The translations under genes and the position numbers were made by a program. Of a DNA stretch of 64,000 bases, positions 2,738 through 51,200 are shown piece by piece. Source of the DNA: Octopus vulgaris (taxonomy: Eukaryota); assembly GCA_951406725.2 (NCBI GenBank), contig OX597819.1, positions 53,382,001-53,446,000 on the forward strand, written 5' to 3'. The notes beneath the pieces are model-generated. The model made no database searches. It saw only the letters and a list, made by a program, of their open reading frames with translations, and had not been told where the DNA came from. Each line of letters opens with the position of its first letter. Position 1 is the first letter of the stretch.

Positions 2738-3108
2738 TTTTTACTTACTTCAGTCGCTTGACTGTGGCCATGCTGGGGCACTACCTTAGAGGGTTTTATT
2801 AGTTGAAGAAACTGACCCCCAGGACATATTCTTTGTAAGCCTAGTACTTATTCTATCGGTCTCTTCTGCCAAACCACTAAACTGCGGGAATGTAAACACA
2901 CCAACATCGGTTGTCAAGCGGTGGTGGGAGGACAAACACACATAAATCGTAATTTATGTGTGTTTCTGTCAACCAAATCCACTCACAAAACTTTGGTTGG
3001 CCCAGGGCTATAGCAGATGACACTCACTCAAGGTGCCATGGAGTGGGACTGAACCCAGAACCATGTGGTTGAGAAGCAAGCTTCTTACCACACAGCCACA
3101 TGTGTGCC
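2738..3108 (-). mobile_element. SINE family A; older fragments flank it at about 2575-2725 and 3115-3340
   Basis: Homology to the 13212 copy. Confidence 0.8.
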
Positions 3109-5080: not shown

Positions 5081-5436
5081 ATCTTTTACTTGTTTCAGTC
5101 ATTAGACTGTGGCCATGCTGGGGCACTGCCTTGAAGAATTTTTACTTGAATGAATTGGCCCTACACATTTTTCTTTTTTTTTTTTTTTTTTACCTGGACT
5201 GGTACTTATCTTAGCAGTCTCTTTTGCTGAACTGCTAAGTTACAAGGATGTAAACATCAGTTGTCAAGTGGTGGTCGAGGAGAAATACACACACATGGCA
5301 GGCTTCTTTCAGTTTCTGAAAGGCTCTGATTAACCTTAGATTATAATGGGAAACACTTGCCCAAGGTGACACACAGTGGGACTGAACCTGGACCCATGTC
5401 GTTGGGAAGCAAACTTCTTACCACACAGCCATGCCT
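5081..5436 (-). mobile_element. SINE family A
   Basis: Homology to the 13212 copy. Confidence 0.8.
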
Positions 5437-9919: not shown

Positions 9920-10388
9920 AGGTATGGTTGTAGTTAAGAATCTCACTTTGTAACCACATGATTTCAGGTTCAGTCCCACTACATGGTACCTTGAGCAAGC
10001 ATCTTCTATTATAACCCCAAACCAACCAACACCTTGTGAGTGAAAATTCAGTATACAGAAACTGAGTGAAGGCCTATCATGTATATATCATTGACTTATT
10101 TCAGTCATTAGACTGTGGCCATGATGGGGAACCACCTTTACACAGATTGATATACACACATATTTATACATACATATTCATGTTTGTGCGTCTTTGAGTT
10201 TGTCACCACCATCATTTGACAACCAGCACTGGTTTGTTTACATCCCTATAACTTGGCAGTTCAGCAAAAGAGACAATTAAGATAAGTGCCAGATTGAAAA
10301 AAAAAAAAGTACTGAGATCAATTTGTTTGTTAAGGCAGTGCTCCAGCATGGTCGCAATTCAATGGCCAAAAGAAGTAAAAGATAAAAC
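9920..10388 (+). mobile_element. SINE family A (older); other old copies at about 19518-19782 (+), 21845-22255 (-), 50330-50700 (-) and 59490-59895 (+)
   Basis: Degenerate A and B boxes plus family body. Confidence 0.7.
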
Positions 10389-13211: not shown

Positions 13212-13626
13212 GAGTGGCTGTGTGGTAAGTAGCTTGCTTACCAACCACATGGTTCCGGGTTCAGTGCCACGGCGTGGCATCTTGGGCAAGTGTCTTCTAC
13301 TATAGCCTCGGGCCAACCAAAGCCTTGTGAGTGGATTTGGTAGACGGAAACTGAAAGAAGCCCGTCGTATATATGTGTATATATATATATATATATATGT
13401 GCGTGTGTGTATATGTTTGTATGTCTGTGTTTGTCCCCCTAGCATTGCTTGACAACCGATGCTGGTGTGTTTACGTCGCAGTCACTTAGCAGTTCAGCAA
13501 AAGAGACCGATAGAATAAGTACTGGGTTTACAAAGAATAAGTCCTGGAGTCGATTTGCTCGACTAAAGGTGGTGCTCCAGCATGGCCGCAGTCAAATGAC
13601 TGAAACAAGTAAAAGAGTTAAAGAGT
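13212..13626 (+). mobile_element. tRNA-derived SINE, family A (well-preserved copy)
   Basis: A box GTGGCTGTGTGG, B box GGTTCAGTGCC, internal (TA)/(TG) tract and tail AAGTAAAAGAGT; many homologous copies in the window. Confidence 0.9.
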
Positions 13627-20636: not shown

Positions 20637-20816
20637 TATGTTATGTCTGGAGAGCGTCATATTGTCTTAATGCCTTATTATCTAACACACTCATCGGTTC
20701 AATTTTCACTCATTTATATTTTTTCTTCCATATAAAAAAATGAGTGGAAATCGAACCAGTGTGTGTGTTAGATAATAAAGTATTAAGACAATATCATTCT
20801 CCCCAGACACAACATA
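20637..20816. mobile_element. Foldback MITE, ~79-bp arms, TA-bounded (copy 1)
   Basis: TATGTTATGTCTGG..CACTCATTT pairs with AAATGAGTG..CCAGACACAACATA at about 85-90%. Confidence 0.85.
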
Positions 20817-21261: not shown

Positions 21262-21461
21262 TATGTTATGTCTGGGGAGCGTCATATTGTCTTAATGCCT
21301 TATTATCTAACACACTCATCGGTTCGATTTCCACTCATTTATATTTTTTCTTCCATATAAAAAAATGAAAAATATACAAAAAAAATGAGTGGAAATCGAA
21401 TCAGTGTGTGTGTTAGATAATAAAGTATTAAGACAATATCACTCTCCCCAGACACAACATA
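21262..21461. mobile_element. Foldback MITE (copy 2, inside the tandem duplication)
   Basis: Same arms as copy 1 with a spacer about 20 bp longer. Confidence 0.85.
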
Positions 21462-23267
21462 ATTTGCTTCAACACACTAGTTCACATAAAGAATCTTGCA
21501 AACCGGATACAAAAACAAAGTATATATATATATAATTTCTGAGCATGCCATCACAGCATGTCCAATGCACATGTCAGCTTGCAATGATGTTGTGCTCTGC
21601 ATGTTGACTTCATCAAACACGGAAGTAAACATCCTTGCAACAGTCATCTAATACTCAGAGAACAGTAAAGAACCTTAAAATAACAAAAGCCTTACTGTTA
21701 GAATAAACACCACAAATCAAAACTGTTTTGCTGACATTGACTACATTGAGACTACGAAAACAATATGGATACCATCAGATGCAAAAAGGCATTAACCATA
21801 ATTCTGACAACTGTTGACAGCTGAGGCTTCACCAAGAATATATCATCATCATCATCATTTACATGTCCACTCTTTCATGTTTGCATGGGTTGGACAGAAT
21901 CTGTTAAGGCAAATTTTCTATGGCCAGATGCCCTTCCTGTTATTAATCTTCACTTGCTTTGAAGAAAGGTAATATTTCCCCATGCTTTCATGAGAGGTTG
22001 GAAATAAAAGACATTTGTAGTATGATGGTGATACACATTTATAACTATTGAGCAATTTCAAGGCAAAGTGACACACCCATGCACATGCACACACACATAC
22101 ACACATACATACACACATTTATATACAATGGGCTTCTTTTTTAGTTTCTGTCAACCAAATCCAATTACAAGGCCTTAATCAGCCCAGTACTGTGGTAGGA
22201 GATACTTGCCCATGTGTGGTTGGTAAGCAAGGTTAACAACACAGCCACATCTGCACACATACACGCACACAAATTCACCACACTGAAGAGGAGGAGGAGG
22301 CTAACTGGGTATATTTTAATGTGCAAATCACTACTTGATTAAATAGAACTGATAATTATTTTCTAGAAAGGTAAATCAAACCCAAATCATTTTTAAAGTT
22401 ATTTCATTTCTAGCTGTCTCCACCACCACCACCACCATTTAATAAATGACAAAAGACATCCCTTTTACATGATCTGGGCAGTGGGAGAGTAAAGACTGTT
22501 GTAAATGTGTGTATGTGTAAATGAGCATTATCATCATATAAGCAAAGTTGCTCATTTCCAGTCTCCTCTGAAAGACATGTCTAGTTTAGGGCGAATATTA
22601 CTTTGTTTGGAAACAGGTGAGTGTTGGCAACAGGAAGGGCATCTGGCTATAGAAAATCTGCTCTGACTCATGCAAGCATGGAAAAGTGGACATTAAATGA
22701 TGATGATGGTGGTGATGATGTAACACAAAGCCATGTAGAGAACTCCTTGATCATATGAATGATGTCACTAATTAGGTTTAAGATATCTTAACTCATTAAC
22801 TTTCATAATAATCTCAGTGATCTGAATACAATGCATTTTGGACCAGATAACAATAATAAGATCAAATATACCAGGAAAAAGTTCATAAAAACAATAGTAA
22901 TGTTTTTTAGAGATTAATAAATTTAGCTTTGAGTAGGTTTTCTTACCATTAGCACAAAACATTTTGTACCACACTTGTTTATCTGTTATGATTGCATCTA
23001 GTTAAAAGCACTTCACTGTAACTACCCAAGCTTAAGTGAAAGCTTCTTTACACAACATCCCACATGAACAATAAAGGATATATCAAGATAGACAATCATC
23101 ATTTAGCATCGGTTTTTCTACATTGGTATGGATTAGACAGTTTAATTGGAACTGGTAAGCCAAAGAGCTGCAGCAGGTTCCAGTCTGTTTTAGCTTGGTT
23201 TCTACAGCTGGATGCTCTTCCCAAAGCCAACAGCTCCACAGACTGTCCCAGGTGCCTTTTGCATTTC

Positions 23268-23858
23268 ACCAGCACAGGTGCCTTTAACGCGTCACCGGCA
23301 CAGGTGCCCTTTAACGCGTCACCGGCACAAGTGCCCTTTAATGTGTCACCGGCACAAGTGCCTTTAACGCATCACTGGCACAGGTGCCTTTAACGTGTCA
23401 CCAACATAGATGCCCTTTACGTGCCACCGACACAGGTGCCCTTTACATGTCACCGACACAGGTGCCCTTTACGTGTCACCGACACAGGTGCCCTTTACGT
23501 GTCACCGACACAGGTGCCCTTTACATGTCACCGACACAGGTGCCCTTTACATGTCACCGACACAGGTGCCCTTTACATGTCACCGACACAGGTGCCCTTT
23601 ACATGTCACCGACACAGGTGCCTTTACATGTCACCCACACAGGTGCCTTTACATGTCACCGACACAGATGCCCTTTACATGTCACCAACACAGGTGCCCT
23701 TTACATGTCACCGGCACAGATGCCCTTTACATGTCACCAGCACAGGTGCCCTTAGTGTGTCACCGGCACAGGTGCCCTTTATGAGTCACCAGCACAGGTA
23801 CCCTTTACATGTCACCGGCATGGGAGCCCTTTACATGTCACCAGTACAGGTGCCTTTT
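23268..23858. repeat. Minisatellite of about 23 x 26 bp (TGTCACCGACACAGGTGCCCTTTACA), continuous with a family D element starting at about 23095
   Basis: Head-to-tail units without spacers. Confidence 0.95.
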
Positions 23859-26800
23859 AAAGCAAGCAAAATGACAAAGTAACAACTATTTTATGTATTA
23901 TAAACACATCCACCATTAAATGTCAATAACCATAATATGGGAAACACATAAACACAATACTAGTCTCTTGTAACTTATACATTTTATTGTATTAAGTCCT
24001 AGGACTTGTAGGGCTAGTTACCCAGTTCCCATGGTGTATAAGTGACATTCCCTCTGAACAGGACACCAGTTCAATGCAGGATTTGTTGATTTACAGCTGA
24101 GTGGACAGGAGCAATGTGAAATAAAGTGTTTTGCACAAAGAACATAAAGCACTGGTGAGTCTTGGAATTGAAACTTCAGTCGTACGATTGTAAATGCAAC
24201 ACCCTAAACACTAGGCCATGTGCCTTTGCAGTTTTTTAGCATAAATTCAACTTTCTGGGGCAAAGTAAAACAACTTCAAACAAATTTCAGTACCAATTAG
24301 TTTGTGGTGATTATTTTAATTAACACTGGACACCATAATGGAATTAAGTACACTGTCAACAAATCTATTTTGCTTTGCTTCAAGAAAACCCAAGCAAGAA
24401 ACCTGTTTATGAATAAATGTAACATCATAGTCATTACATACCAAACAACAATTCTGGTGACAGGTTACAAGTGCAATAGAAACACGCAATTATATATATA
24501 TACAACAATTATGTTTCAAAACTAGACTTTCATACATTTAATTATTTGCTAGAAGGAGGTGATGACAAAACAGGATGATGTGAAGTTATGTTTGTATTGT
24601 AATAAATATCAGAAAATGTAGCAAAGCAGGTGCAATGGATAGCATATTTCCTGGAGAAGTGAGAGAACGAGAGACAAGATTAATGAACAGTAAAAAATTT
24701 GAAAGCTATCAGAAAGGAATAGTAAAAAATTACTGGTTGTTTTATATTGAGTTGTAAAGTAATATAACTGGAGAGCTTTTTTTATAGAGTAGTAAAAGAA
24801 AAAACTTGTAGTGTAGGAATGTAGAAGATTAACTAGAAAGGGAAATGGGTTAGTTAGACTTTGTGAAATCTTGATCATCTCACAATTAAAATGCTTTGAT
24901 TTTAATGGAGTTCAAAATTGAAAATTTGAGTTTTGGTGATTCAGGGAAATGCAACCAGATTGGTAACAGCAAGTTTCACATTAACAATGACAACACAAAA
25001 ACTACTATTGTCACACTTCCAAGAAATGTGTTTTGATTCAAATTACTATCTATCTAATAACAGAAACATAGAAAAACCTACTGGGAGTTACATGCTAACA
25101 AGAAAAGTGTCAATCAAGTTAAGTCTGAACAAATAGTGGAAGGCTGATGATAGGTCATCAGTTTTCGATGGCTGTTGATGGAAGTGTGTGTAGATATTGC
25201 TTTCTATGTGTAAAAATCCAATCACAGAAAATTACAGCTTCAGCAACATTGATGTTCTTACATAATTAGTGGAAAATTGCTACATTTGATTTTTGAGAGA
25301 TAAATAGTCTAGCAGCAGTTAGAAACACAGCATAGCAGTAAAACAGGATGGGAAAAACAGTTGCTTATGATATGTAAAATGAAATCTGGGGAATAAATTT
25401 AGCATTAAAAAATAAAATATAAGATAAATTTTCCTGGAATCAATTAGTTTCATGACTTTTAAAGAAAAAAATATTTTTTTTTAAATGTAAAGAATTTTTT
25501 AAAACTTGTAAATGAAGCTGATATGATAGAATCCAGAAGTTCCTTAAAGGAGTTGATTATTAGAGTAGGAATATAAAACAAGAGAGGTTGTTGATGTGTG
25601 TGACTTAGAATTTAATTGTTCTAGCAGGAAATTAATGGAACCTGAACAAATAAATAGGATCTAATAAATCAATTAATTAAAACCTTTATAAGTTTAAATT
25701 TCAACTTGAATTTAACAGAAGACCTGCTGTATGGTGAACTGGTCTCTGGAAAGAGAGCATGACAATGACAACACCATCTTCATTTCAAAGATGCCTGAAA
25801 GAGAGACAGAAAAAGTCCCCTTGTATGAACATTGAATGATGGGAAGAAATTTCTGATGATTGATTGGTCAAAATAATCTTGGTGATACAAAAGTTCAGGA
25901 TGGTCATGGTTGGAATACTTCTGATCATAGAATTTTTGTTCAATGTTGACCCAGAACCAAAACAAAACCAACAAAATTGATACAAGTGCCATAACTAAAA
26001 GTGCTCAATGAAATATTTTCAACAAAGGAAACTGAGACAAAATCAGTTTGTTCATTCATTTGTTTGCTTCATGTCCACTGCTTCTATACTGGCATAGATT
26101 GTAGAAGTACATGTTATTGATACATTGTTTTACAGTAGGATGACCTTCCTTTTACTAACCCTTACAAGTTTCTCAAGTAAGAGGATCTTTATTCCAATTC
26201 TCTTTGAAAGTACAAAGCTACCAGACAATTTGTCAACAGATAAATATCAACAAATGTCCCCACCTGACGAAGCTCAGTGATTTTCATGCAAAATGCAGTG
26301 TAAACATTCAAATATGCATATCACATACCTATATCAACTCATAATATTTTGAAGGCATGGGCTTGAGCTACACTAATGATAAGAACTCAAAAACACTTAT
26401 CTGGCTTCATCATCATCGACATCCAATGTATGCTTTCCATGCTAGCATGGGTTGGACAGTTTGAGAAGAACTACCAAGTCCAAAGACTGCACCAAGCTCT
26501 ACTGCTTGCTTTGGCATGGTTTCTACAGCTGGATGCCCTACCTAACACCAACCACTTTGCAGAGTGTAATGGGTACTTTTTACATGGCACCATTTTTCTG
26601 TGATACTTTGAAAAAACAAGAAAACAGCCCCATGTCATGCAGATGTATACAATTCCTCTATTTTCAGCTCCAGCTCAAGAATGTCTTAGCAACATTTTGA
26701 AAAACTGAAAACATTGGTACATTAGCCAACTTTTTAAAAGACCAAAACTATGGATAATTTACTGTCTAGTACAGATTTATACCAAACTCAAGCAAAAAAC

Positions 26801-31539: not shown

Positions 31540-34500
31540 CAATTGAAAATTTTTTAACAGAATAACATGGAAAGATAAGGAAAGTAAAAAAACATATCAA
31601 AGCTTCAGGCTTTCCCAAGATTATCCAAGGATACTTTCAACAACTGTGAGAAAACGGTAAAAGGAGAAAGTTTTTTTCTTTTGTAACAATAAAGTTTAAC
31701 TTTGTCTCATATCTATCTATCTATCAATCTATCTATCTATCTGTGTATGTGAAGACATGTATATATTCATACAAACGTCTGTATACACACACATACACAA
31801 AAGAGGCTGGCTTCCAATAATCTTCACTGTGGAAGCAACTGTATGCAAATCTGTTTCAAATAGTTTAAAAGGTTTCTGAAGATATTATAAGGAAATATCA
31901 AAATCAAACCATCAGATAAATAAACCAAGATAGACTAGAAAATGGAGAGAGAAAGAGAGGGAGATTTCCTTTCAGATAACAAGTTTATTTACTATTAACA
32001 ACGTTAACCTAATATAAACTGGTTTTGAAATTAGCTTAATTACAAAAACTTGCAACAATACAAATGGAAAAATGAACATGAGAAGGACAACAATGGTTCT
32101 CAGAAAAAAAGTTGGAATAACAAGATGGAAGAAACATACAAATAATGAGAACTCCCCCACCCATGATAAAATATTTAAAACAATAATAACAATGCCTTAC
32201 TATACATCAGATATAAGATAGGATATATCTTAGCTGTAACATCTTATATTAGATAAGAAACATTGAAACCATAACAACAACAATGCTGATTCCTTGCATT
32301 GGGACAATGGAAGAAATCTGTAGAGAAGGGATATAATTGATCGAATTATAGCCCGAAAAATTACTGGTACTAATTTGTGAATTTGCGTAGCCTAGTGGTG
32401 AAAGTGTGGAACTAACAATCGTAAGGTCATGGTTTTGGTTCCCAGACAGGGCAGGGCATTGTGTCCGCAAGCAAAACACTTCATTCCACATTCCTTCAGT
32501 CTATTCAGTTAAAAGTGAATGCCAGCAGAGCTTAACCCAGTGAGGGACTGGTAACCCATTCAGGACTTATGCACCATGGAAAAATAAAGATAAGCTCAGG
32601 CCTAAGAAGTCTGCAGACTTTTGACAGACATAAGACTAAAGCAGGGCAGATTTGCTGTACTTGATAACACAAGTCAAGCTAAGTAGACTTGCTGTCTTCC
32701 ACACATACAGGTTTGTTCTTTCAGGTGCTGCTGCCACTTGAGAAGCATCCGTGTTGGAGCTGCATGTAAAATGCACCCGGCACACACTGTTAAGTGGTTG
32801 GCATTAGGAAGAGCATCCAGCCATACAAACTATGCCTCAACAGACAGCTGGAGTTTGGATAGCTCCCTACTAGCCAGCTCCATGTCAAACTGTCCAACCC
32901 ATGCAAATGTTAAATGATGATGATGATGATGGACAGGGGGTAACAGAAACAATCTGCCCTGGGTGGCACTTTTAATGGAAGTGGTAATTTCAGATCTGTA
33001 GTATAAGCCTGTATAGGGTTGGGAGAGTGAAGGCTAGCAAACTCAAGGGCTGCCCTTGGTGCCAAACTCTCTAGCTATGTCACTGGACAGAGACAAATTT
33101 ATCAATTCTCCCTAGTGGTATAAAAAGCAAAGTCAACCTTGGTGAGATTTGAACTCAGAATGTAGATGAACAGAACTAAATCCTCCAAAAAGTATTTACT
33201 CTAACACTCTACCACCTCGGCTGACTGCCCACAAATTACTATGATGTTAATGGCTATAAAAATAACATTTTTAATTATTGTTTTTGTTGCTTGGTGGTAG
33301 CCAGCATTTATTTCTATGTTTAACATTAACAGTAATTAATTAGACAGCATTTCAACTTTTTTTTTTTTTTTTAACAATAAACCAGAATAAATATATTGGC
33401 TTTCAAAGGCTGTAAAAGCTGTAGAATTACACACTTATTTCTGTTGGCTCAATCAACAGGAAACATGATCAAATGTTTGGCACATTCTTTTTAATACAAA
33501 ATCAAAAAACTATTTTTGCACCATAACACAACAGATGACCATGTCTGAAATCATTTTACAGTTGTTCATAGGGTGAAGGAAGAGAAACTTAGAGAATTTT
33601 CTATCTTTGCTTTAGTATTACACATAAAACAGAAACGTTTTCTATCAAAGCAGTCCTTTAATAATTGGAATTGTTGCTAGTGCTGTTGTTCATTCTAGTC
33701 ATGGCCATCCCTTCTTATTGTATATCTGGGACTAACTGTCCTGTGTCTTTTCATTTAAAAAAAAAAATTTTTTTTTTTTTTTTAAATTTTAATAAGTTGG
33801 TAGAATGTCTTTGTGAAAAGCTATGGCTTTTATCAAAGGTCCATTCAATCAGAGCAATTTTTTGGTGAAATAAAACAAGAACATGAAAGCTTGAATGCTG
33901 AAATTAAGCATTTAAACCAGTGATATCTATCTCAAATATGCTACCTGTCATATGTTTAATCTGATTAGATCCAGCTTCTCACACCTACCCAACAACGCTA
34001 CTCATATAAATAATCACATTATGAAAATCCTGAAGCTTCAAAATAATATATGATTAATTTAAAACAATGTGAATAAATAAGCATTACATTTGACAGAGTA
34101 ATCTGAATGCTAAAGTGTTAAACAATCATCATCATCAACACCACCACCAAAAACATCTTATTCGAAGTGTCTAACCCATGCCAACATGGAAAATAGATGC
34201 TAAACGTTGACAATGATGATGATGTATGATCAAGATAATATTCTATTACATAAGTGTAAGATGTATACTTCAGTTTAACTATGAAAATATTAGTCAAGCA
34301 AATCTGGAGTTCTTTTATTATAGCATGCCTGAAAAATACATCATTTTTGAAAAGGTAGTAATTATTATCAAACTGTTTACATAAGATATTATCTTTTTAT
34401 ATTCAAATCTTTTTTCCTCCCCCACACACAAAAATGTTAACAGCTGCCACATTTATCATCATTATCATTCCAAGTATGTTCTTCCATGTTGGCTGGCAAG

Positions 34501-35894
34501 GATATAAGATGAGTACACTAGATCAACTTTCCTATCTGATATCTTCCTGAATCTATTCTTCTGCATGTCCCATTTATTTTAGCTAAACCCAAACAACCTC
34601 ACTTCAAAATATGGCTCTCTGCTGTTTCAGTTATCAAACAACAACAATATTCCTACAACGATTACATTTAATCCTGCCTCCTACATCCCCACTTTTTGTC
34701 ATTTTATTCTCCCAACATGCCTAAATTATCTTCCTCGGCCATTTTCATTGAATGTAGCTTTGAGTAATTTTGTTAAAACCCAACCACCTCAATTGATATT
34801 TCAGCCCCACATTTATAAACACTACATGTAAATGTTAAACTTATTACATTACACATTGCTTCCATCATATGCAACACATAAGTTGCCTAACTCCTGCCAC
34901 TCATCAAGTTTTACTATTATGACACATAGTACTAAACACCCAGATAGAAAATATATCTAATCACACTCTGTGTAGTCTGACACAGTCGATTAAGATTTCT
35001 ACATTTTGCAATTTAAGTATTGTCATGCTTGTGACTTCATATTTTATGTACAAAGTGTACTGGCTCACACAAAGCAAATTAACTATACATTATATATACC
35101 CAATACATTCTACATCAAAACTAACCTCCATGTGGCTATTAGGTCTGCTAAAATTAGCAGCCAAACCTTTTCCAAATCACTCATTCCCATTTCCAACAAG
35201 AGGATATATTGCAAAACATAGCCCTACATACTTCTAAAAACATGAGCGGTCACATGTAGAATGCTTTTTGATCATAGTTTACTCTATCAGGATTGACATA
35301 CTGCTAAATAAGAATAAACAATACATTATTTATTATATATCCAAAAGTGACCTTCACTATTTATTAAAAATTACTATTCAGTTATTTCAAACACCAGAAA
35401 GGTTTATAGAATTCATACAAGCTTCTAATTGCAGAGTTATTAAATTGACCAGAGTCTCAGGAAGAAGGGTAGTCACTTAAAGGAGCAGAAGAATTATGGA
35501 TTAAAAAGGGATGGACAAATCCTCAGAATTGTAATCCTTTCTACTATAGGCACAAGGCCTGAAATTTTGGCAGGAAAGGGTTTATAAATTACATCAACCC
35601 CAGTACTCAACTGGTAATTATTTAATCAACCAAATTCCTACCAAATTTCACTCACAATGCATTGGCCAAACCAAAGCCACACCAGAAATCACTTGCTGAA
35701 TATTGAAGTTCAACCTCTAAAACCACATGATTATAAAGTGAACTTCTTAACTACCAGTCATTCCTGACCTATATATAACATCAAAAGTCTTCAAGTGATT
35801 CCTCTCAACTCAGTGGGTCACAGGACTCATTCAAATTTCAAATACAATATCTAACATTACTACAAAACTTATGCACTGGCTTCACCATCTCACA

Positions 35895-36087
35895 CAGGGC
35901 TGTGGAGTCAAAACAAAAAACTTCAACTCTGACTCCTCTTTATGTAATTAAGTGATTGTGTCATAAAACATATGTATATGCTTGTACTTTGAGTAGGCCT
36001 ATATGTTATAACTGGTTTATATTAAAATATAAAGACATTGTAAGTTGGAATCAGAGTCGGTATAGTTTTACCGACTCCACAGCCCTG
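35895..36087. mobile_element. hAT-type MITE (193 bp)
   Basis: Perfect 15-bp TIR CAGGGCTGTGGAGTC / GACTCCACAGCCCTG and perfect 8-bp TSD ATCTCACA. Confidence 0.9.
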
Positions 36088-36902
36088 ATCTCACATAACA
36101 CATTTACTCAATACAATTACACTGGCTACAACAATTAACATTTCCCTCACACTTATTATATAAACCATTGCAGGTGGCACATAAAAAAAAAAAATCAACC
36201 TTTGAACGTTGGGCCCCATGGAGGAAAAGTGGCTGAGTTCCTTTCATGCATTTGGCTTGACAGAGGCAAAGTGGCTGAGTTCCTTTCAAGCAATGAGCCT
36301 GATGGAGGTAAAGTGGCCGAGTTCTTTTCAAGTGTTGGGCCTCACGGAGGCAATGACCAAGACCTTTGACATTATGTCAAGCTTGAGAAGAAGACCCATC
36401 AAGCTAAGCAAAATTGCAGTAATGTCAGATACCAGTGTCATGCAAATGGCACCTATGCCAGTATCACATAAAAGCATGTATTACACTCTCAGAGTGGTTG
36501 GTATTAGGAAGGGAATCCAGCCATAGAAAACCATGCCAAATCAGACGAACCTGGCGTAGCCATCCAGCATGCCAGCCCAGTCAAACTGTCCAACCCATGC
36601 CAGTGTGAACAAAGGATATTAAATGATGATGGTGATGATGATGATTAGCTGCACAGGTTAGACCAGGGATTCCCACCCTTATTTTGCTTGTGGACCCCCT
36701 GAGAGCTATTTTACCTGTGTACCTTATATATGAACATGTAAATTTTTGAAATAAAATATTTGTTTGTAGGTTAGTAAAAACTAACAATGAAACAATTTCG
36801 TTATATTCATAACATAAATTCCAAATACAAATCTTGAGAATTTCAATAAATACAGGTACCTCTCCTAGTAAACAAAATTTATATGTGGACCCACAAATTA
36901 CC

Positions 36903-37235
36903 ATGTGGCTTAGTGGTTAGGGTATTTAGCTCACAATCTTAAGGGCATGAGTTTGATGCTTGCCAGCATGTTGTGTCCTTGAGCAATGCACCTTATTCTT
37001 CATTCCTCCAGTCCACTCAGCTGGTTAAAATTAGTTGTACCTGTAATTCAAAGAGCCAGCCTTGTCATATTCGCATTCGGTGTGTCACACTGAATGTCCC
37101 TGAGAACTATGTTAAGGATATGTGTGTCTAAGGGGTGCTCAGCCACTTGCACTTTAGTTTCCTGAGCAGGCTGTTTCTTTGGTCGAATCAAATGGAACAC
37201 TTGTCGTCGTAATTGACAGAGAGCCACCACAGCTA
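36903..37235 (+). mobile_element. tRNA-derived SINE, family C (Meta-domain-like GTGTCCTTGAGCAA..CTCCAGTCCACTCAGCTG); older copies at about 24000-24225 (-), 27480-27655 (-), 32390-32580 (+), 53720-54065 (+) and 63750-63990 (+)
   Basis: A box GTGGCTTAGTGG, B-box remnant and shared body between copies. Confidence 0.7.
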
Positions 37236-37251
37236 TTAGAAACTTTCTTTT

Positions 37252-37488
37252 GAGGCAGTGAGCTGGTAGAAACGTTAGCACGCCGGGTGAAATGCTTAGC
37301 AGTATTTCATCTATCTTTACGCTCAGAGTTCAAATTCCGCCAAGGTCAACTTTGCCTTTCATCCAATTGGGGTCGATAAATTAAGTACCAGTTATGCACT
37401 GGGGTTTATGTAATTGACTTAATCCCTTTGTCTGTCCTTGTTTGTCCCCTCTATGTTTAGCCCCTTGTGGGCAATAAAGAAATAAGAA
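37252..37488 (+). mobile_element. tRNA-derived SINE, family B (central TTTCATCCTTTCGGGGTCGATAAA..AGTACCAG, Nin/Deu-domain-like)
   Basis: A box AGCTGGTAGAAACG, B box GAGTTCAAATTCC; many copies in the window. Confidence 0.85.
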
Positions 37489-37740
37489 ACTTCCTTTTAA
37501 TACACCGATTGTTTCCTCAGTCATTCAAAAACCTGCTGCATAGCTCTCTGTCAAATCTAACTGCACAAACCCCTCAACTACAGCCTCAACTGACCAATGC
37601 CATATGAACAAATTTGATGAACAAAAATTGTGAGTAAATACATCACACATACATGTTTGTGTATGTGTAAGTGTCTTTGTGTTTCTCTCTTACTATTTGA
37701 CAACTGTTGTTCGTTTAAATGTCATGAGCAGTATCAGTAC

Positions 37741-38127
37741 CACAAGGCAATCTTCATATCCAACTTCATGTGGATATCTTGTTAGAACGCTAAATACTGT
37801 GTTATTAGCCTTCAGAAACCCTCTTGTGTAAGCCTACTGGCTAATTTGCAACATCGGTCTCTGAAAGATGCTAACATTTCATCATGGCAATTAGATTTGG
37901 CCAGTATGTGGTCACCAGATATCTCCCCCTGATGAGGGTCAGTAGACTGAAATCACGTGATATGGGAATTCTGGTATACATAACAGACAATTCTCATCTG
38001 CCACAATCTAAGTCTGTGCCTTCATACACCATGCACCTATATGAGAGAATCTCTCAATGCTAATACTGTAGTATATGGTGTTCTAACAAGGTATCCATTA
38101 TAAGCTGGATATAAATATTACCTGTTG
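37741..38127 (+). mobile_element. ~390-bp self-complementary unit carrying the hammerhead (retrozyme-like or Penelope-derived)
   Basis: 37741-37833 is about 70% identical by eye to the reverse complement of 38035-38127. Further pairing (ttagatttggc/gccacaatctaa; tatgtg/tacata) continues up to hammerhead stem I. Confidence 0.55.
37914..37975 (+). ncRNA. Type I hammerhead ribozyme motif, possibly decayed
   Basis: Core CTGATGA (37929-35); stem II GGTC-agta-GACT; GAAA (37949-52); palindromic stem III ATCACGTGAT (37952-61); NUH triplet AUA (37960-62); stem I TCCC/GGGA plus ACCAGA/TCTGGT. Confidence 0.75.
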
Positions 38128-38659
38128 TTTGTTTGTCTGTTCACATCCACACTGGCCTCGTGCCGGTGGCATGTAAAAAGTACCATCCGTTCATGGCCGT
38201 TGCCAGCCTCACCTGGCCCCCGTGCTGGTGGCACATAAAAAGCACCATCCGATCGTGGCCGTTTGCCAGACTCGTCTGGCACCTGTGCCTGTGGCACGTA
38301 AAAAGCACCCACTACACTCATGGAGTGGTTGGCATTAGGAAGGGCATCCAGCCGTAGAAACATTGCCAGATCAACTGGGCCTGGTGCAGCCTTCTGGCTT
38401 CCCAGACCCCAGTTGAACCGTCCAACCCATGCTAGCAATGATGATGATGATGATAACCTAGCAATTCAACAAAAAGAGACCCGTAAAATAAGAACATAAC
38501 TAAAAAAAGTACTGGGTGTCAACAAGATTGACTAACCTCTTCAAAGTTGTGCCCCAGCAAGGCCATAGTCCCAAAACTGACACTATTAAAGGAATAACCA
38601 TATATGGTTTCACTTTGATGAAATATGTGTACATACAAGCAAACAAAGTAGCCTCTACA

Positions 38660-38835
38660 TAATCAACCGACTTGCTAGAAACAGCAGCCAAATCTCCTTC
38701 AGACTACACCATATTTTCTTAAATTAAGGAAATGATTCACTAGATAATGTAGTCTTAAACAGCCTTAAAAAGAACAAATGACCATGGTCAGAATGCCTTT
38801 AAATCATAGGTCTACTCCATCAGGGTTGACATGTG
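38660..38835 (+). repeat. Dispersed repeat family E (GCTAGAAACAGCAGCCAAATCTCC...CAGGGCTGAC); other copies at about 2258-2445, 19095-19230, 42370-42530 and 45370-45560 (+), and 6890-7090, 25770-25960 and 62140-62330 (-)
   Basis: Recurrent homologous blocks; class not determined. Confidence 0.6.
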
Positions 38836-39311
38836 TACATATGAGTTGAAAGGAAAAGTATGTAATAAGGGGACTTCATAGAAATTCCTTAAAAATAGCA
38901 ATATTAAAGTTTGGCTTGTAAGTTTTTCAACAAGATGACGGCATAGATGTAAAAATTTGTTCAAATGGGAAATTTTACGCAATGGTCTTTTGACATTAAC
39001 GCAAATGTATCGAACTTCTTAAGCATGAGAGATAAACATGACATATTCTTTTCTTTTGCTTCTAATGGAAAAGAAAATTATGCAGCTTTCAATGAATAGA
39101 TTTATTCACAAAACTGTCAAGATATAAACTGCTTGTAATTTAAAATCAATAGAAAAATTCTTCAAGCTATAATCGTCAAGGGAAGTAACTCTCATTTTTT
39201 TCAATGATAATCTCCCTTACAACATAATACACTCTCTTGACTTACTCCATGTAACACCCCCCATCTCTATCTCGTTATCAACTGCGAAATGAACTCTGCG
39301 TTTATTTAAAC

Positions 39312-40068
39312 CAGTGGTTCTCAACCATTTTTTTTTTTTTTCATCTACAGAGACTTTTAATTACTATTCTGTTCTGGTGGGCTCCCAAAGCCATACGATG
39401 TTTAAAAGCTCGTGTGATACTCTTTTCAAAATTCTTATTTTGTTTATCACAAACTTGTGTTTGTTGAACTATTCTTTAATTCTTTTACTTGTTTCCATCA
39501 TCTGACTGCAACCAAGCTGGAGCACCGCCCTTAATCGAACAAATCAACCTCAGGACTTATTCTTTGTAAGCCGAATACTTATTCTATCGGTCTATTTTGC
39601 CGAACCACTAAGTTACAGGGACATAAACACGCCAACATCGGTTGGCAAGCGAAGGTGGGAGGACAAACAGAGATATAAACATTATATATCGTAAATTGAT
39701 CATATATATATATATATATATATATACACACGACGGGCTTCTTTCAGTTTCCATCAACCAAATCCACTCACAGGGCTCTGGTTGGCCTGACGCTATAGAA
39801 GGCACTTGCCCAAGGTGCCATGCAGTGGGACTGAACCAAGAACCCTGTGGTTGGGAAGCAAGCTTCTTACCACACAGCCATGCCGTATGTAAAACGTTTG
39901 CTAAAAAAGGCTAGCTGTTTCTTGCAATAAATACATCTAAAGCAAAACTTTTTCACGGATCCTTCAAACACTACTGTGGATTTCCAGTATACTATTTTGC
40001 ATGCACTGAGCCACAAAGGTCTTATACGGGCCCTCCTGGGTCATATAGACCCTGGGTGAGAACCACCA
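39312..40068. mobile_element. hAT (Charlie-like) MITE, interrupted by a SINE at about 39480-39884
   Basis: TIR CAGTGGTTCTCAACC / GGGTGAGAACCACCA and perfect 8-bp TSD ATTTAAAC (39304-11, 40069-76). Confidence 0.85.
39480..39884 (-). mobile_element. SINE family A nested in the hAT MITE
   Basis: Homologous to the 13212 and 40186 copies. Confidence 0.85.
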
Positions 40069-40185
40069 ATTTAAACAAAAATTACTTGCTTCGTCAGAAT
40101 TAAAACAGTAGAACGTAACAACATTAATGATGGTCTGTCTGCATCTTCAAATACTAAATACAAACAGTTCACAAACTGAAAATAT

Positions 40186-40372
40186 ACTCTTTTACTTGTT
40201 TCAGTCATTTGACTGCGGCCATGCTGGAGCACCGCCTTTTTAGTTGAGCAAATCGACCCCGGGACTTATTCTTTGTAAGCCCAGTACTTATTTTATTGGT
40301 CTCTTTTGCCGAACCGCTAAGTGATGGGGACGTAAACACACCAGCATCGGTTGTCAAGCAATGCTAGGGGGA

Positions 40373-40412
<40 letters not shown>

Positions 40413-40424
40413 TACATACATACA

Positions 40425-40462
<38 letters not shown>

Positions 40463-40638
40463 ACATACATATATACGACAGGCTTCTTTCAGTTTCCGTC
40501 TACCAAATCCACTCACAAGGCATTGGTTGGCCCGGAGCTAAAGTAGAAGACACTTGCCCAAGATGCCATGCAGTGGAACTGATCCCGGAACCATGTGGTT
40601 GGTTAGCAAGCTACTTACCACACAGCCACTCGTGCGCC
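40186..40638 (-). mobile_element. SINE family A, full length
   Basis: Reverse complement of the 13212 copy at high identity. Confidence 0.9.
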
Positions 40639-41457
40639 TATGTTTGTTTATTTGTGAGGAAGAGGAGAGGTGTGACATTACAAATAGGGCAGGCCCTTCG
40701 TAGGAAGGGGAGAAAGTGCACACATTTTTGTATATAACTTTATACTGCTTATTATTTTCTTACTCTGGAACAGTTTGACTTTACTCTTCCTCACAGCAAA
40801 CTAAGTCTCACTCTATGAATAGCTTGTATTCATTGTATGAAGAAAAGAAGGGTTAAAAAATTATGAATGGAATATCATAAAATTATTATGGCTGCTGTCA
40901 GTTGTCATAGTAATTTTGGCATGACTGTGGGCAGCAACAATAATGTAATATACCCATAAGATAATATTTGCAAGAATAATAATTATATGATATTATTCCA
41001 CCAATAGTTTATTAATCCTTTTTATCTTTTTAAAGAAAAAGTTCTTTCCAATTTTTTCTTTAAACCAGATGCTTTAAAAACTTTTATTTGAAGATTTAAG
41101 AAAAGAAAGCTTCGTTTCTTAAGCTTAATACAACACAATGAGAACTCTAGTGTAAAGAAGATAGACATTTTAACACATTAAGTACCAGAGTTTCCTTCTG
41201 CTCACTCACAAAACAAAAAGAAAAAAAATCCAACGAACAAGCCTAAGCTCAAAGAAATTTCAAATAATCATACATAATTACATCAAGGCATAGCCAAAGC
41301 TAACAATTAAAACACCTACAAGTACACTTACATTAAATATTTATAACCAAGTCAGTAAATATATATGCTTCTTTATTGGCTGACATACACAGTGTGCAAA
41401 TTTACTCTTCCACATTTTTAAAAATTAAAAATAAAGGTAAAAAATATATATAGCACG

Positions 41458-41521
<64 letters not shown>

Positions 41522-42740
41522 ACACTCTGAAGAGACCATTTGAAATAAATTTAAGTATGTAAGGAGGAAAGAATCTTGCTTTTACCAAGAGTGTCCTCCT
41601 AAGAGCACTTCTATTTTATCTATTACACCAAGTAGTTTTGTATACAATCTTAATTTAAGTCGTTCAAGACAAGTACACCTCTTCAGCTGGTTCCAAGTAC
41701 ATGTTTTAGTCTCTGAACTCACTGATAAGTACCTGATCTTCACAGAGGATTGTTGTCAAATGACAGCAAGGTTCAAGTGGTGATATGATGAACGAGAATA
41801 GCATGTTTACGTGGGTGCACGCTCTCACAAAGTGTTGCAAGAACAGATTGTTAGATGAAATAATCAAAACAATAAAGTTCATAATTTAGCACTATTTCAA
41901 AAGTCAAATTTTATTTGCATCAGAAAAATTTCGCAATGAAGATGCACTACAAGTTGATTGATTCACAAGGCCTTGTGAGTGGATTTGGTAGACAGAAACT
42001 TAAAAAGAAGCTCTTCATATATGTGTATTATATAAACATATAAGCATTTATGACTATATGTTTAAGTGTGGGTAGAGGTATGTACTTGTGAGTATATGTG
42101 TGTGCACATAATTGTACATGTGTGTTTCATGTCACTTTTGTCATGATATCATGTGTGACAGTTGTGAATAAGTATCGCCATCATACAAATGATGTCCCTT
42201 ATTTCCAATCTTCCATGGAAACATGTCGAGCTATGTAGAAATATTACTTGCTTAAAAAAACAGATGAGTGATGGGGATAGGAAAGGCATCTAACCATAGA
42301 AAATCTGCTGCAACAAATTCTGTCGGACCCAGACAGACGTAGAAATGATGATAGTACCATTCAAGAACCACTATGTGGTTACTCAATCTGCTAGAAATAG
42401 TAGACAAGCTTGCATCCAATCAAAAACAAAAAATGGTGAGGGTGCATTATATAATGTATCCTTAAAGACCTCAAAAGTGACAGCTGGAATGCCTTTGAAC
42501 TGCTAAGTTAAATTGGGACACTAAACAACAATCCTTAAATGGTAAAAATCAAGATCAACACCGGTATAAACTGAACTAAAAAATTTTCATGTGATACAAA
42601 GCAACAAATTTGACTAAAATAGCAAACAAACCAGACCTAGTTTTTAAACTATTTCCCCTCATTTTATTATCTAATTATCCATAAGTCATTATCTAAAGTA
42701 TTTTTTTACTAATCTTCTAATCTACAAACATTAATAAGAA

Positions 42741-42784
<44 letters not shown>

Positions 42785-43382
42785 ATAGTGTGTGTGTGTG
42801 TGACATCTACAATAAGTTCATTCATTCACTTAATGTCCATATTTTTCCATGCCAGTATGGATTGGATGGGGATATATCAGAGGTAAGATTTTAAGACCAG
42901 GTGTTCTTCCTAACACACACCCCAAAGTAAAGGATTTCATATTTCCACAGATTTCTAAAAGTGCAGAGCAGCCAGTCATAACATCAACAAAGAAGGTAAA
43001 CATCATTTACCATGTTGCTGAAGCAATGCTGCAGGATGTGCACATGTATACACAAACACTTCCTACAATTACCCCCTACCAAATTCACTCACAAGGTATT
43101 GATTAAATAATGAAAATAAAATTCTTTCCACTCCTATCATCTTCTTTATTTTTATGTCTGTTTTTTTCATGTTGGCATGGGTTAGACAGAATATTTTAGA
43201 CAGTGTTTTATGATCAGTCATTTTTCATGATGTATTCTTTTTAGTCACCTACTAGAGCATACAGTGTGATTATTCAGAAAATCTGGATACATGGCAACAG
43301 TGATTTTGAAAAATTGAAAATGTACACACACACACACAGAGCAGTCATGTTGTAACTAAACCATAAATAAATGGTTTCAAAT

Positions 43383-43696
43383 ATTCTTCCCTACTCTAGG
43401 AACAAGGCCCAAAATTTTGGGGGAAGGGGTGCAGTCGATTAGACTGATCCCAGTATGCAACTGGTACTTAATTTATCAACCCCCGAAAGGATGAAAGGCA
43501 AAGTCGACCTTGGCGGAATTTGAACTCAGAACGTAAAGACAAACAAAATACCACTAAGGATTTCGCCCGGAGTACTAACATTTCTGCCAGTTCACCGCCT
43601 TAATGGTTTCAAATATTGGCACAAGGTCATCAATTGAATATTACATCAGCTCCAATATTCAAGTGGTACTTATTTTACCCCACACACACACACACC

Positions 43697-43766
<70 letters not shown>

Positions 43767-44288
43767 AATGAAAGTCAAATTTGACCGAGTCAGAGTTTGA
43801 ATTCAGAACATAAAGAGCTGGAAGAAATGCCACCAAGCATCTTGACTGACTTGCTAATGATTCTTTTCTACTCTAGGCACAAGGTCCGAAATTTCTGGGG
43901 AGGGGGCCAGTCAATTAGATCGAACCAGTATGCAACTGGTACTTAATTTATCAACCCTGCAAGGATGAAAGGCAAAGTTGACCTCGGCAGAATTTGAACT
44001 CAGAACGTAAAGACAGAAGAAATATTGCCAAGCAATCCACCCAGCGTGCTAACATTTCGTATTTCTTTATTGCCCACAAGGGGCTAAACATAGAGGGGAC
44101 AAACAAGGACACACAAAGGGATTAAGTCGATTACATCGACCCCAGTGCATAACTGGTACTTAATTTATCAACCCCAAAAGGATGAAAGGCAAAGTCGACC
44201 TTGGCGGAATTTGAGAACGTAGCGGCAGACGAAATACTGCTAAGCATTCTGCCCAGCATGGTAACGTTTCTGCCAGCTCACCGCCTTT
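43383..44288 (-). mobile_element. Cluster of four head-to-tail family B SINEs
   Basis: Repeated ggatgaaaggcaaagtcgacc..gaatttgaactcagaacg blocks at about 43490, 43765, 43963 and 44180. Confidence 0.85.
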
Positions 44289-45923: not shown

Positions 45924-46096
45924 CTCCTGCCTTTCATTTAATTTGAACTGCTTGTCGAAATTGACATTGGCGTGAAGCTCTGCCAAAGGCTGGAATAACT
46001 GCAGATTTATGTCTTCACGTAGAGGGTATATCTGTTTCCATGCTGGGTTTACAACATCTCTAACAACATAGCGAAGATTTTCCGGCCACAGCATCT
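45924..46096 (-). CDS. Internal coding exon (173 bp, phase 1 to 0) of an unidentified large-intron gene: (E)MLWPENLRYVVRDVVNPAWKQIYPLREDINLQLFQPLAELHANVNFDKQFKLNERQE
   Basis: Acceptor atattttcag|AG and donor CAGGAG|gtatgt on the minus strand. Open frame with normal amino-acid composition, higher GC than the flanks, non-repetitive. Product not recognised. Confidence 0.8.
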
Positions 46097-46939
46097 CTGA
46101 AAATATATTGCAAAATTTTTTTGCTTTTAAATGATTAAGTGAATAAATAAAAATAAAGGAGCAAAACAAAAAAAAGTTTTCCCGAAAGCCTCTAAGAACA
46201 AGCCAGTAGTAGGCTTCCATCAGATGCATAATGAAACATTCTGATATTATATAATATACAATACAATCAAGAAACAAAGGTGAATGTAATGGTATATGTT
46301 TTTTTTTTTTTAAATCATGATGTAAATTTTTTTTGGTGTGTGTACAGCTGTCCAATCCATGCCAGCATAGAATATGGATGCTAAATAATGATGATTATAC
46401 TTTTTAGGTCAATATTTTATTAGACTTTATATGAGTATGTATCAAAGTTCTAGAATTTGATTCATTCTGATGACATCATCATCATTTTATGTCCACTGTC
46501 CATGATGACATGGGTTGGACAGTTTGACCAAGGTTGGCAAGCTGGAAAGCTGTATCAGGCTCTAATCTGATTTGGCATGGTTTCAACAGCTAGATGCCCT
46601 TCCCAATGCCAACCACTCCAAGGGTGTAGTGGGTGCTTTTACAACATTTCTTGAATTTATTAAAACAACAAACAAGAAAAGAAAGATAATTCTTACAGTC
46701 AGCAAGAAGACCATAACTGCAAGCATCAGCTTCAGACGGCTAATATTTAAAATTTCCCAAGTGCAGGGAGACAGTTATAAGACGTTTTGGCACAATTTAT
46801 CTTTAGTGCCACTGATTCGACAGCACTGCTAATTCAACACGGAGTTATTTGACATGAAACTTTTCACTTTTTTATCTCGTTTTATCACAAACAAAATATT
46901 TGTGTCTATTTTTTTTTTTTCCATTTGGGTTTTGTGGAT

Positions 46940-47705
46940 TAGTTTCAAGACTAGGTTTTTCCACTCGTCATAGGTTTTGAGGCACTTAGCACCTTGAGAA
47001 ATGTCCTCATCACTTCTACCCACATCTTTGGACTACCACTTCTGCAAACTCTTATACACGTTATTACACACTTTTTCATCTATCTTTCTTCGCTCATATC
47101 ACATTAATAGCTCTGCAATTTTTCCTTGTACATTGCACTGAGATACCTGTGGCACCCAGTTTTTCTCTCAGCCTAATCATGTTCTTTTCATCCCTTGCAT
47201 ATCATCCACATTCAGCACTCATGTCTAGATACCATACAATATTACACTCCATGCAAGGCAGCAAGCTGGCAGAATTGTTACTGTGCCGAAAAATTGCTTG
47301 GCGACAGTTCTTCAGACTTTATGTTCTGAGTTCAAATACTGCCGGGGTCAACTTTACCTTTCATCCATTTGGGGTTGATAAAATAAGTACCAGTTGAGCA
47401 CTGGGGTCAATATAATCAACTTACCCTCTCTTCCAAAGTTGCCGGCCTTTATGCCAAAATTTGAAACCTATCCTCTGGCCCCTGTGCCAGTGGAACATAT
47501 AAAGCAGCCACTACACTCTCAGAGTGGTTAGCATTAGGAAGGGCATCCAGCTGTAGAAACACTGCCATATCAGATTGGGGCCTGGTGCAGCCTCCTGACT
47601 TCCCAGACCCCAGTCGAACCGTCCAACCCATGCCATCATGGAAAGCAGACATTAAATGATCATGATCATGATTACACTCGATACATAAACATAAAATAGT
47701 CTGCT

Positions 47706-48200: not shown

Positions 48201-51200
48201 ATTCTTAGAATGATTTGGCTATGGGAATTAAAACATTAGCATGAAGCAGTTCACACAAGCAACCAGAATTTCATTTTAATTTTTCTGAAGAACTACAATA
48301 AACAAGAAGAGACTGGGGAACCAGGTCCTGGCAGACAACTATTAACATGCTAAATTCCTCAATGCACTCATTACCTAACTCTTATGCACAAACACACTTT
48401 CTTCATTACTGCATTACATAAGGAACTCAAAGTTACTGCAACATCACTGACTTTATCAAAACATTGTTTCGTTCAATTATGGAACATTCTAACTTTCAGA
48501 TTCATATTCAGAATAGACTGGAGCCAAGACTAAGAAATATAAAAGTCCAGTTTGTCAATCAGATAAACAAATATACACCATTTTTAAGTACAATGGAAAC
48601 ATGCTTTATTATTTTTTTTTATGTAAATCAATAAACTTTTCTTTTATCTGAAGCTATAACAAGTTTCTGAAGTAAGATTAATAAAGTGAGGCAAGACAAG
48701 AAAGAGAATAAACTATAACTGATATAAAATCCTTCTATAAACATCAGTTAAATGGAATAGTTTCTTAATACATGCTAAATTAGAAAAGAAATTAAACCAG
48801 ACAGCAACAATAATAACAACAAGTCCAAAAATCCATTTCATGCAACAGAAGTAGTATTAGATTAAAATAGCCAATTATGTATCATACTTAAAGTAAATAC
48901 ATTGTGAGAGGCAATTTTACTGCTGTATTCGTCCTGAGATAACACCTCTAATGGACATGCTGTGTTTAAAAACACAATATATATTCAAGGGAGATGGAAA
49001 TTTCCCAACAGAGGCTAGTGATAATGCTAGATGCAATTCTACTTCATTTGGCATTGCAGAGTGTACTCACAGTCAATTGCATGCTTAGATGAAATTTGTC
49101 GCCACCAATATTATAGAAAACCAGTGAATAAACAATCACTGATGATGTAAATAGCTGCTCAATTGAATAAAAATTCATTATATGCAACATAAACAGTATT
49201 AGATTGAAATAGCAATCTACACATCATATTTAATATCAACACTGTGAAAGGCAAATTTATTGTGCTATTCATCCGAAGTAAATGCTGTTTTAAAAATACA
49301 ATATCTATCATAGAGAAAGGACAAAGAAATAATGAAAAATAAATAAGTCTTAAAGATCTACGTAGCTGGCTCTTGGCCACAGTTATTATTTACAGAAACT
49401 GCAGGGATTCCCAACAGCTACAAGATTATATCTTATGTTCTTTGAAAATGATAAAATGAAAGCAAAGAAGAACGATAATTCTACAGCTGTTACATGAGGG
49501 ATGAAATATCAGCTTTTGTTTAGTATGACAAGTATTGCAACTTTGAAATGCCATTCAATGAACTTAAATAAATGCAACATGACCTGCATCTTGAAATAAA
49601 TGCAACATGACCGGCAACATGAAGTAACTGCTTCGACACTGCAAATTAAGTTGACAAAGCATAACAAATATACTGCTTATTATAAAGATAACCATGTGTG
49701 GTACATGCACACAGCCTTTGTTATTCTTTAGGGAAGGAAGGGAAGGAGCGAGAGGGAGGGAGGAAGGGGAATGGAAAAGAAGGATGAAGGTGGCGGGGAG
49801 AGAAGAGAAGAAAGGAAGGAAAACTCTAGTACAGGATTGATACTTTATCAACCCAGAAAGGATAAAAGGTAGAGTTGACCATGGCAATATTTGAACTTAG
49901 CATGTTGAGAACCTGAAGGAATGCTGCAATGCAATGCACCTGACATTAACAACACTGCCAATCCAACCCTTCACTAATCCTTATGTGACCCAACTGCCAA
50001 ACACCACAAGTCTAAAGGGTGTACATGCATACAAACATGCATGCCTGTTTGTGAGCAAAGATGTATGACAGGTTCATAGCAGAAATCGTTGAAAAGTTTG
50101 CTTCAGTCACAAAGGTCTCAGGTTCAATACTACTATGCAGTGGTTTTGGGGGAAGGGTCCTCTGGCATAGCCTCCGATAGCCTTGCAAGTGAAAATGGGT
50201 AGAAACTAAATGGAAACCGTGAGGAAGCCAGTTGCATTGAGTGGACCTGTATTTCAAGAGCCTAGCTTTGTCACATGCACTATCACAGTGAGAATCATGT
50301 TGAGGTCGGAAGTAATTATCAACATCAACATCATTTTAACATCCACTTTTCTATTGTTGCATGGGTTGGATAGAATTCATTGAAGCAGGTTTTCTATGGC
50401 AAGTTGACCTTCCTGTTGCTAACCCTCACCCACTTTCAAGTAATGTAATATTTCCCCACTGCCATATGTTTCCACAGAAGATTGAAAATGAAGGACACAA
50501 CTTATATGATGGTGATGTCCATTTACAAATATCACATGATCTTGAGACGAGGAGACATTAAAAGCACACACAATGAGCTTCTTACAGTTTGCATCAAAAC
50601 CAGTCACAAGGCTATAGTAGAAGATACTTGCCCAAGGTGCTATACAATGGGACCAAACCCAACACAATGTGATTGGAAAGAAGACTTCTTAACCACAGTA
50701 TCTGTGGAATTCTCAATGAGTAGGTCTGCTGACTGATATCCTAAGATCACAGTGCCACACAAAAAGTGGTGGTGCCATGTAAAAAGTACTGGTGCTGGTG
50801 CCATGTAAAATGCACAGGTGATGGTGCCACATAAAAAACATTGGTGACACATAAAAGGTAACCAGTACATTCTGTAAAGAGGTTGGAAATAGGAAAGGCA
50901 TCCAGCTGTACAAAACCTTGCCAAAACAGACTATGAATCTGATACAGCCCCTGGCCTTACCAATTCCTGTCAAGGCATCTAATCCATGCCAACATGGAAA
51001 ACGGATGTGAAATGAAGATGATGATGGTAAACAACTGCAACAGATGTTCATCAAAAACTGACATGATATCTATTCATTTCATACAAGCATGGAACTGGAA
51101 AGGCATAGAATCCTGAATTGAACAAGCCTGCACACATGTATGTGCACATGTATGTGTGTATAATTGTATAAATGCACATGTTAAACATTCACAAACAAAA

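Follow-up and report, generated by a model that had tools for sequence, protein, structure and literature searches.

The insertion and the repeat that it splits

The window examined here, a stretch of 64,000 nucleotides (64 kb) of the Octopus vulgaris genome, is AT-rich (36% GC) and dense in short repeat families, with 47 self-matching intervals that take up 13,000 bases. An insertion of 405 nt lies in it at 37717-38121. It is bordered on both sides by a 13-nt direct repeat (37704-37716 and 38122-38134, + strand), whose copies are identical at 12 of 13 positions. When 1500 random position pairs were drawn and low-complexity pairs were dropped, 10 of the 1289 pairs kept equalled this match, and the repeat is likely a target-site duplication (TSD). 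In addition, an older repeat family is interrupted exactly at the direct repeats: the left flank of the element aligns with six other window copies of the older repeat, the left half of which ends with the left TSD copy at 37716, and its motif is taken up again in the right flank, to about 38148. As the older repeat is split at the 13-nt direct repeat, the insert comprises 37717-38121. The original prediction had placed the ends of the unit at 37741 and 38127 and had seen no clear TSD; neither statement was confirmed, the left end being at 37717, with 30 nt outside the mirror.

The two parts of the split repeat occupy 37574-37716 and 38122-38148. This repeat, which we take to be SINE-like, has relatives near 2878-3185, 5235-5308, 10175-10255, 13408-13488, and 40318-40398. 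On the right it is curtailed by another repeat, of high copy number, which occupies 38152-38454 and contains three tandem units of 62-63 nt, and an array of roughly 26-nt tandem units at 23095-23860 is related to the latter.

The element starts with a one-sided 30-nt extension beyond the mirror (37717-37746, - strand), comparable to the "tail" of insertions made by Penelope-like elements (PLEs). In the arm alignment, the mirror partner of 38121 is 37747, and thus this extension lies outside the mirror and is present at the left end only; it measures 28 nt if two mirror pairs inside the right TSD copy are counted. A contig from another locus aligns gap-free over 37727-37824, which makes the extension, at least in part, the element's own. 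Over 37716-37739, run X1 has a depth of 436, compared with 26 in the locus contig. The left outer arm follows (37747-37824, - strand), which the arm alignment and the family letters identify as an inverted copy of the element's 3′ end. Next comes a linker without an assigned strand (37825-37885) that mirrors 38004-38043 weakly and with gaps, and in which 48 nt (37836-37883) have contig cover from this locus alone. The inner left arm and the 5′ strand of helix I, with an internal loop (37886-37928, + strand), mirror 37963-38003 by alignment and folding. They lead into the core of a type I hammerhead (37929-37962, + strand), located by descriptor, folding, and family letters. On the other side of the core, X1 and X9 contigs indicate that the 3′ strand of helix I and the inner right arm (37963-38043, + strand) are common to other loci. 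Finally, the arm alignment and the contig depth place the element's 3′ end in the right outer arm (38044-38121, + strand); past 38123, X1 depth drops from 2641 to 121.

The element appears to be non-coding. No ORF of note was found in the rod stretch, as had been proposed, and there was no RT or GIY-YIG Pfam match in 8 ORFs near the unit, out of the 59 listed for 32000-44000. Two coding candidates were rejected. A 43-aa frame whose ATG falls within the core, an arrangement also seen in Poseidon PAc, recovered five repetitive proteins with weak summed scores in a protein search. The other candidate was a remnant of coding sequence in the arm: one frame stays open across the left arm and the tail, and the right arm is stopped in all three. 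No second copy was detected in the window by blastn. The best nhmmer match outside the element (48878-49002, E 0.07) falls on a decayed direct repeat pair (48827-48984 and 49169-49308, about 342 nt apart) that weakly resembles the element's arm and tail. This pair may represent an incomplete tandem from a related family, of much greater age.

The hammerhead motif and its relatives in public contigs

The type I hammerhead motif is situated at the apex of the mirror, with C3 at 37929 and predicted cleavage after A37962. It is the sole descriptor match on either strand of the window and none was found in 100 shuffled 64-kb windows, which bears out the proposal of a hammerhead at this position; the descriptor found no minus-strand hammerhead in the whole window. 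Rfam gave no match at the gathering score in the window, and at E values up to 10 the segment 37500-38300 yielded eight chance matches and no ribozyme of any class. The motif consists of CUGAUGA (37929-35), GAAA (37949-52), and a cleavage triplet AUA that ends at 37962. Helix III (37952-61) is a palindrome of 10 nt. Helix II (37937-48) has 4 bp in a slipped register with an extra G37936 and opens with a G-U pair, while the first pair of helix I is broken (U-C) in the window copy. Consequently, little or no ribozyme activity is predicted for this copy. Pair probabilities of the hammerhead helices are 0.35-0.46 in an 81-nt fold and 0.03-0.14 in that of the full stretch.

The stretch was found, whole or in part, in 15 of 24 listed runs under four organism labels, and the contigs of four runs (X1, X4, X9, and X11) were aligned to it. 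The locus itself is seen in all four, with contigs that carry one or two differences (labels A, B, and D). Over the core, however, the summed contig depth in X1 is 3224-3362 versus 26 for the locus contig, and in X9 it is 238-244 versus 6.9; these ratios, about 125 and about 35, are not copy numbers. Together with the 22-24 distinct X1 contigs that carry variants of helix II, this excess indicates that there are many other loci. In effect, the contigs and the descriptor support the view that a non-coding, hammerhead-bearing mobile family of the PLE/retrozyme group is present at multiple loci in a cephalopod and is retro-inserted.

The letters of the related loci differ from those of the window copy at informative places. 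At 37928, A accounts for 847 of 930 depth in X1 (13 contigs) and for 73 of 91 in X9 (11 contigs), and it repairs the first pair of helix I. Likewise, with T at 37938 (1423/1992) and C at 37939 (1650/1992), the 4 bp of helix II fall into the standard register. These letters are unphased and come from the variants listed (40 of 107). Because they repair both helices, the family likely retains a plausible ribozyme, judging by its sequences, whereas the window copy is likely impaired.

The contigs also give some information about layout. In at least three X1 contigs, an arm of the left type runs into the core without a change of strand (37796>37930, 37816>37943, and 37823>37946), so the layout recurs in other copies. 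Among the joints listed (15 of 25), one arm-to-arm joint is shared by X1 and X9, another leads an X1 contig back into the right arm in direct orientation (38120>38077), and none corresponds to an empty site. Upstream of the core, the loose ends of 11 contigs yield a consensus with an agreement of 0.52, and by eye its letters resemble the mirror of the downstream letters. None of the listed runs that contain the stretch is labelled as RNA. Contigs of depth 2-3 cross the element ends in X4 (37500-37878 and 37878-38195) and X11 (37888-38131), two runs that are only guessed to be RNA, and no joint of either run is among the 15 of 25 listed; since contigs by their nature reveal neither circles, ends, nor strand, this is neutral with respect to expression.

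A pattern scan of viral contigs gave no matches. The 13 loci from a scan of metagenomes were rejected as chance matches: by eye, none has both helix I and helix II, and the alignments do not exceed 17 nt, with one exception of 34 nt (E 0.005).

Mirror arms and the origin of the rod

The outer arms, 37745-37824 and 38044-38123, are inverted copies of 80 nt with 74% complementarity, in keeping with the imperfect inverted repeats described in the original prediction. Because of them, the 387-nt stretch 37741-38127 folds into a strong rod. On the + strand its energy is -125.8 kcal/mol (z -7.6), which none of 100 shuffles matched, and in circular mode z is about -7 to -8 (-7.85). The minus strand folds better still (-138.3, z -8.4). 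Nevertheless, the signal disappears without the outer arms (37825-38043, z -0.01), and the half that bears the hammerhead (37884-38121) reaches only z -1.7 in linear and -1.3 in circular mode. Sub-stretches of 138, 218, 238, and 297 nt gave + strand values between -1.0 and -1.7, linear or circular, against 40 shuffles each. The proposed rod is thus there in both fold modes, although its signal arises from the outer mirror arms only.

The inner part of the mirror is weaker. When the left half is reverse-complemented, it can be aligned with the right half starting at helix I and moving outward; the inner match scores 37.5, a value reached by 4 of 1000 shuffles, and has gaps across 37825-37885. 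The inner mirror match of the original prediction therefore exists. The inner arms are, however, more diverged than the outer arms, with gaps and the 48 nt that are specific to this locus.

At the 21 mismatches of the outer arms, pairing would be G-U on the + strand in seven cases, G-U on the minus strand in six, and neither in eight. Consequently, the observation that about a third of the differences are compatible with G-U on the + strand is correct as a count and fails as a signal of strand, since wobble pairs favour neither strand. Among the variants listed, 11 of the 21 mismatches have a family variant and 10 do not. In 10 of these 11 cases, the variant restores pairing; the restoring letter is the majority in X1 at seven positions and is present at 41-49% at three. 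It should be taken into account that sequences of one arm may align to the other arm. Still, the contigs carry the letters of the mate arm instead of each arm's own, and hence both arms probably go back to a single sequence from which they have since drifted. The rod shape would then likely result from a mirror duplication of DNA and not from a viroid-like RNA circle.

Three further inverted pairs less than 1 kb apart, 74-80% alike, are found in the window (20637-20816 and 21262-21461, 21844-21976 and 22594-22711, and 46475-46639 and 47501-47666). They are probably inverted copies of common repeats and are possible sources of dsRNA.

A probable PLE-type stump and its rivals

The reading that we prefer, with a probability of roughly 0.7, is that the element is an old, worn copy of a repeated hammerhead element that was likely pasted in by PLE enzymes, that is, a PLE-type stump. 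Published PLE insertions have a 5′-truncated inverted copy beside their 5′ end, which leaves inverted repeats around the insert, and a tail of 30-40 bp at one end, a hammerhead in the pLTR, and TSDs of variable length (bioRxiv 2021.04.23.441226 = PMC8557442; PMC8969392). In Adineta copies, for instance, the pLTRs measure 193-218 bp, the tail 31 bp, and the TSDs 8-10 bp (PMC3846280). The octopus locus displays a hammerhead motif, an inverted arm, a one-sided extension, a TSD-like repeat, and a split host repeat. As in PLE insertions, the hammerhead is in the end unit (the half that bears it has about 220-240 nt, against about 200 bp for the Adineta pLTRs), the inverted copy is head to head at the 5′ side, and the 30-nt extension at one end is accompanied by a long target duplication, although at 13 nt the latter is longer than in the Adineta examples. 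Unlike PLE insertions, the octopus element has no ORF and none has so far been linked to its family, and its inner arms are unevenly diverged. This uneven divergence is the main point that a fresh mirror copy does not simply explain. PLEs are abundant in the host: they make up 6.83% of the O. vulgaris genome, in 190 families, according to the supplement of PMC13282606, which contains neither sequences nor any mention of hammerheads.

Following published PLE work, a PLE reverse transcriptase/GIY-YIG protein would have nicked the target and copied an RNA with a hammerhead-bearing end. Copying may have begun at two sites about 30 nt apart, producing the tail; in vitro, tail length equals the gap between two RT start sites (PMC11167929). 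It would then have halted near the ribozyme, and an inverted second copy would have been added; the self-complementary region of helix I could plausibly have served for fold-back priming. Palindromes are also present at the inverted junction of Adineta copies, where they were read by the authors as a sign of self-priming (PMC3846280). The mirror arm was thus likely made as DNA during or before insertion, which presumably duplicated 13 nt of the target, and the arms would afterwards have drifted to 74%. As for the ribozyme, that of the family is predicted to cleave after A37962, likely aided by dimer pairing through the palindromic helix III; PLE insertion itself does not need ribozyme cleavage in vitro (PMC11167929). 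Either an autonomous PLE, through its end, or a non-autonomous unit of the retrozyme or circle-making type could have supplied the donor RNA.

The geometry of the ribozyme weakens the PLE reading, as it is canonical and linked to retrozymes instead of being of the minimal PLE type. Minimal PLE hammerheads have a helix II of 7-8 bp and are mostly single dispersed motifs read as truncated PLEs (PMC4209133). The octopus motif shares with them its palindromic helix III and, in the window copy, an unpaired base between A9 and helix II; its helix II, in contrast, has 4 bp and a first pair that is G-U and not G-C. With a helix I of 6 bp and a helix II of 4 bp, the family is nearer to the canonical retrozyme type, such as the hammerheads of mussel and coral retrozymes of 220-390 nt (PMC7229834). 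Solo monomers of non-LTR retrozymes are known, and these elements have been proposed to be PLE derivatives (PMC7229834; bioRxiv 10.64898/2026.07.22.740005). In the latter work, which is mainly on vertebrates, PLE ends are argued to be the source of animal retrozymes, and monomers are counted in large numbers. The octopus element resembles non-LTR retrozymes in being non-coding, a few hundred nt long, and provided with a canonical type I hammerhead and a palindromic helix III. Nevertheless, retrozyme membership cannot be claimed, because there is no tandem at the locus, unlike in non-LTR retrozymes, and the monomer is not well folded: retrozyme monomers are highly self-paired, and the hammerhead-bearing half of this worn copy only reaches the values of -1.3 to -1.7 given above. 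Moreover, the mirror layout is outside the retrozyme definition.

Type I hammerheads are also on record in another cephalopod, the giant squid, with 235 Hammerhead_1 loci counted (PMC6962438); they are not described there as a mobile family, and the octopus copy, unlike those loci, does not match the Rfam model. No description of the octopus hammerhead family was found in search listings of the open-licence literature.

A more unusual possibility, which we consider unlikely, is that the family is an undescribed non-autonomous parasite of PLEs, inherited as a long hairpin that is tipped by a canonical hammerhead, and that its active copies, elsewhere, would self-cleave and make circular RNA or long dsRNA. 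If true, such a parasite would join the inverted-arm layout of PLEs to retrozyme biology and would supply ADAR substrates in a heavily editing animal. Under another reading, also improbable in our judgement, the whole 405-nt hairpin would be a fixed, heritable, non-autonomous retrozyme, transcribed as long dsRNA with a ribozyme tip and maybe a circular stage, and moved whole by PLE enzymes. The greater divergence of the inner arms, the recurrence in other contigs, as judged by eye, of an arm followed by the core and of mirror-like letters preceding the core, and the canonical hammerhead of the type found in the mussel and coral retrozymes are all in line with this idea. By contrast, the outer arms converge on one sequence, no covariation beyond drift is seen, and the hammerhead helices scarcely form in the full-length fold (0.03-0.14). 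In addition, the agreement of 0.52 among 11 contigs upstream of the core and the locus-unique 37836-37883 suggest that junctions vary between copies.

The original proposal, in which RNA-level selection would maintain the rod of a viroid-like or retrozyme circle of 390 nt and the locus would be its circularly permuted cDNA, is very unlikely. Metazoan retrozyme circles measure 170-400 nt (PMC7229834), which suits the size of the unit; folding in circular mode gives a strong signal; and the X1 contig that re-enters the right arm (38120>38077) could come from a tandem. However, the fold signal needs the 80-nt mirror arms and is as strong on one strand as on the other, the wobble pairs are evenly split, the arms converge on one sequence, and neither a tandem (dimeric) unit at the locus nor a minus-strand hammerhead was found. 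A tail of 30 nt on one side is not predicted by a permuted circle, and it is accompanied by the 13-nt TSD. Thus, of the original prediction, the mobile hammerhead family is supported and the circle monomer is not; the evidence comes close to the second outcome that had been named as refuting it, namely a Penelope pLTR.

Finally, it is highly doubtful that a transposase moves the element as a MITE or foldback DNA transposon, with long inverted repeats at the termini and a captured hammerhead, for although the family arms are near-identical and the summed arm depth in X1 is about 2.4 times the core depth, as for two arms per core, the left arm begins 30 nt inside the insertion, the extension is at least partly common to another locus, the 13-nt duplication exceeds the fixed TSDs of 2-11 nt of DNA transposon families, and the core is kept, with family letters that restore its pairing.

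As most likely read, then, the locus holds an ordinary decayed PLE-type stump that adds a cephalopod family to a known layout. It also illustrates that PLE stumps can mimic viroid-like rods in folding scans. Furthermore, of modest value, a canonical retrozyme-style hammerhead inside a PLE-style insertion would give direct locus-level support to the idea that animal retrozymes move by PLE enzymes (bioRxiv 10.64898/2026.07.22.740005), and since the mirror has helix I at its centre, many copies could serve to examine the self-priming suggested in PMC3846280.

Two coding traces lie elsewhere in the window. An open frame of 141 aa at 1757-2182 (+ strand), with no Pfam match and no RT or GIY-YIG, presumably resembles the C-terminal part of a CR1/L2-type LINE protein. 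In turn, a minus-strand exon at 45924-46139 gave, with a query of 58 aa, a 98% match to an Octopus sinensis protein that is SMG5-like, and covers residues 803-874 of that protein. No other SMG5 exons were found in the 64-kb window, so either the introns are very long, in which case the element may sit within a long intron, or the exon is a lone duplicate. A 111-aa Logan protein (P0006) continues beyond the end of this exon into similar flanking sequence.
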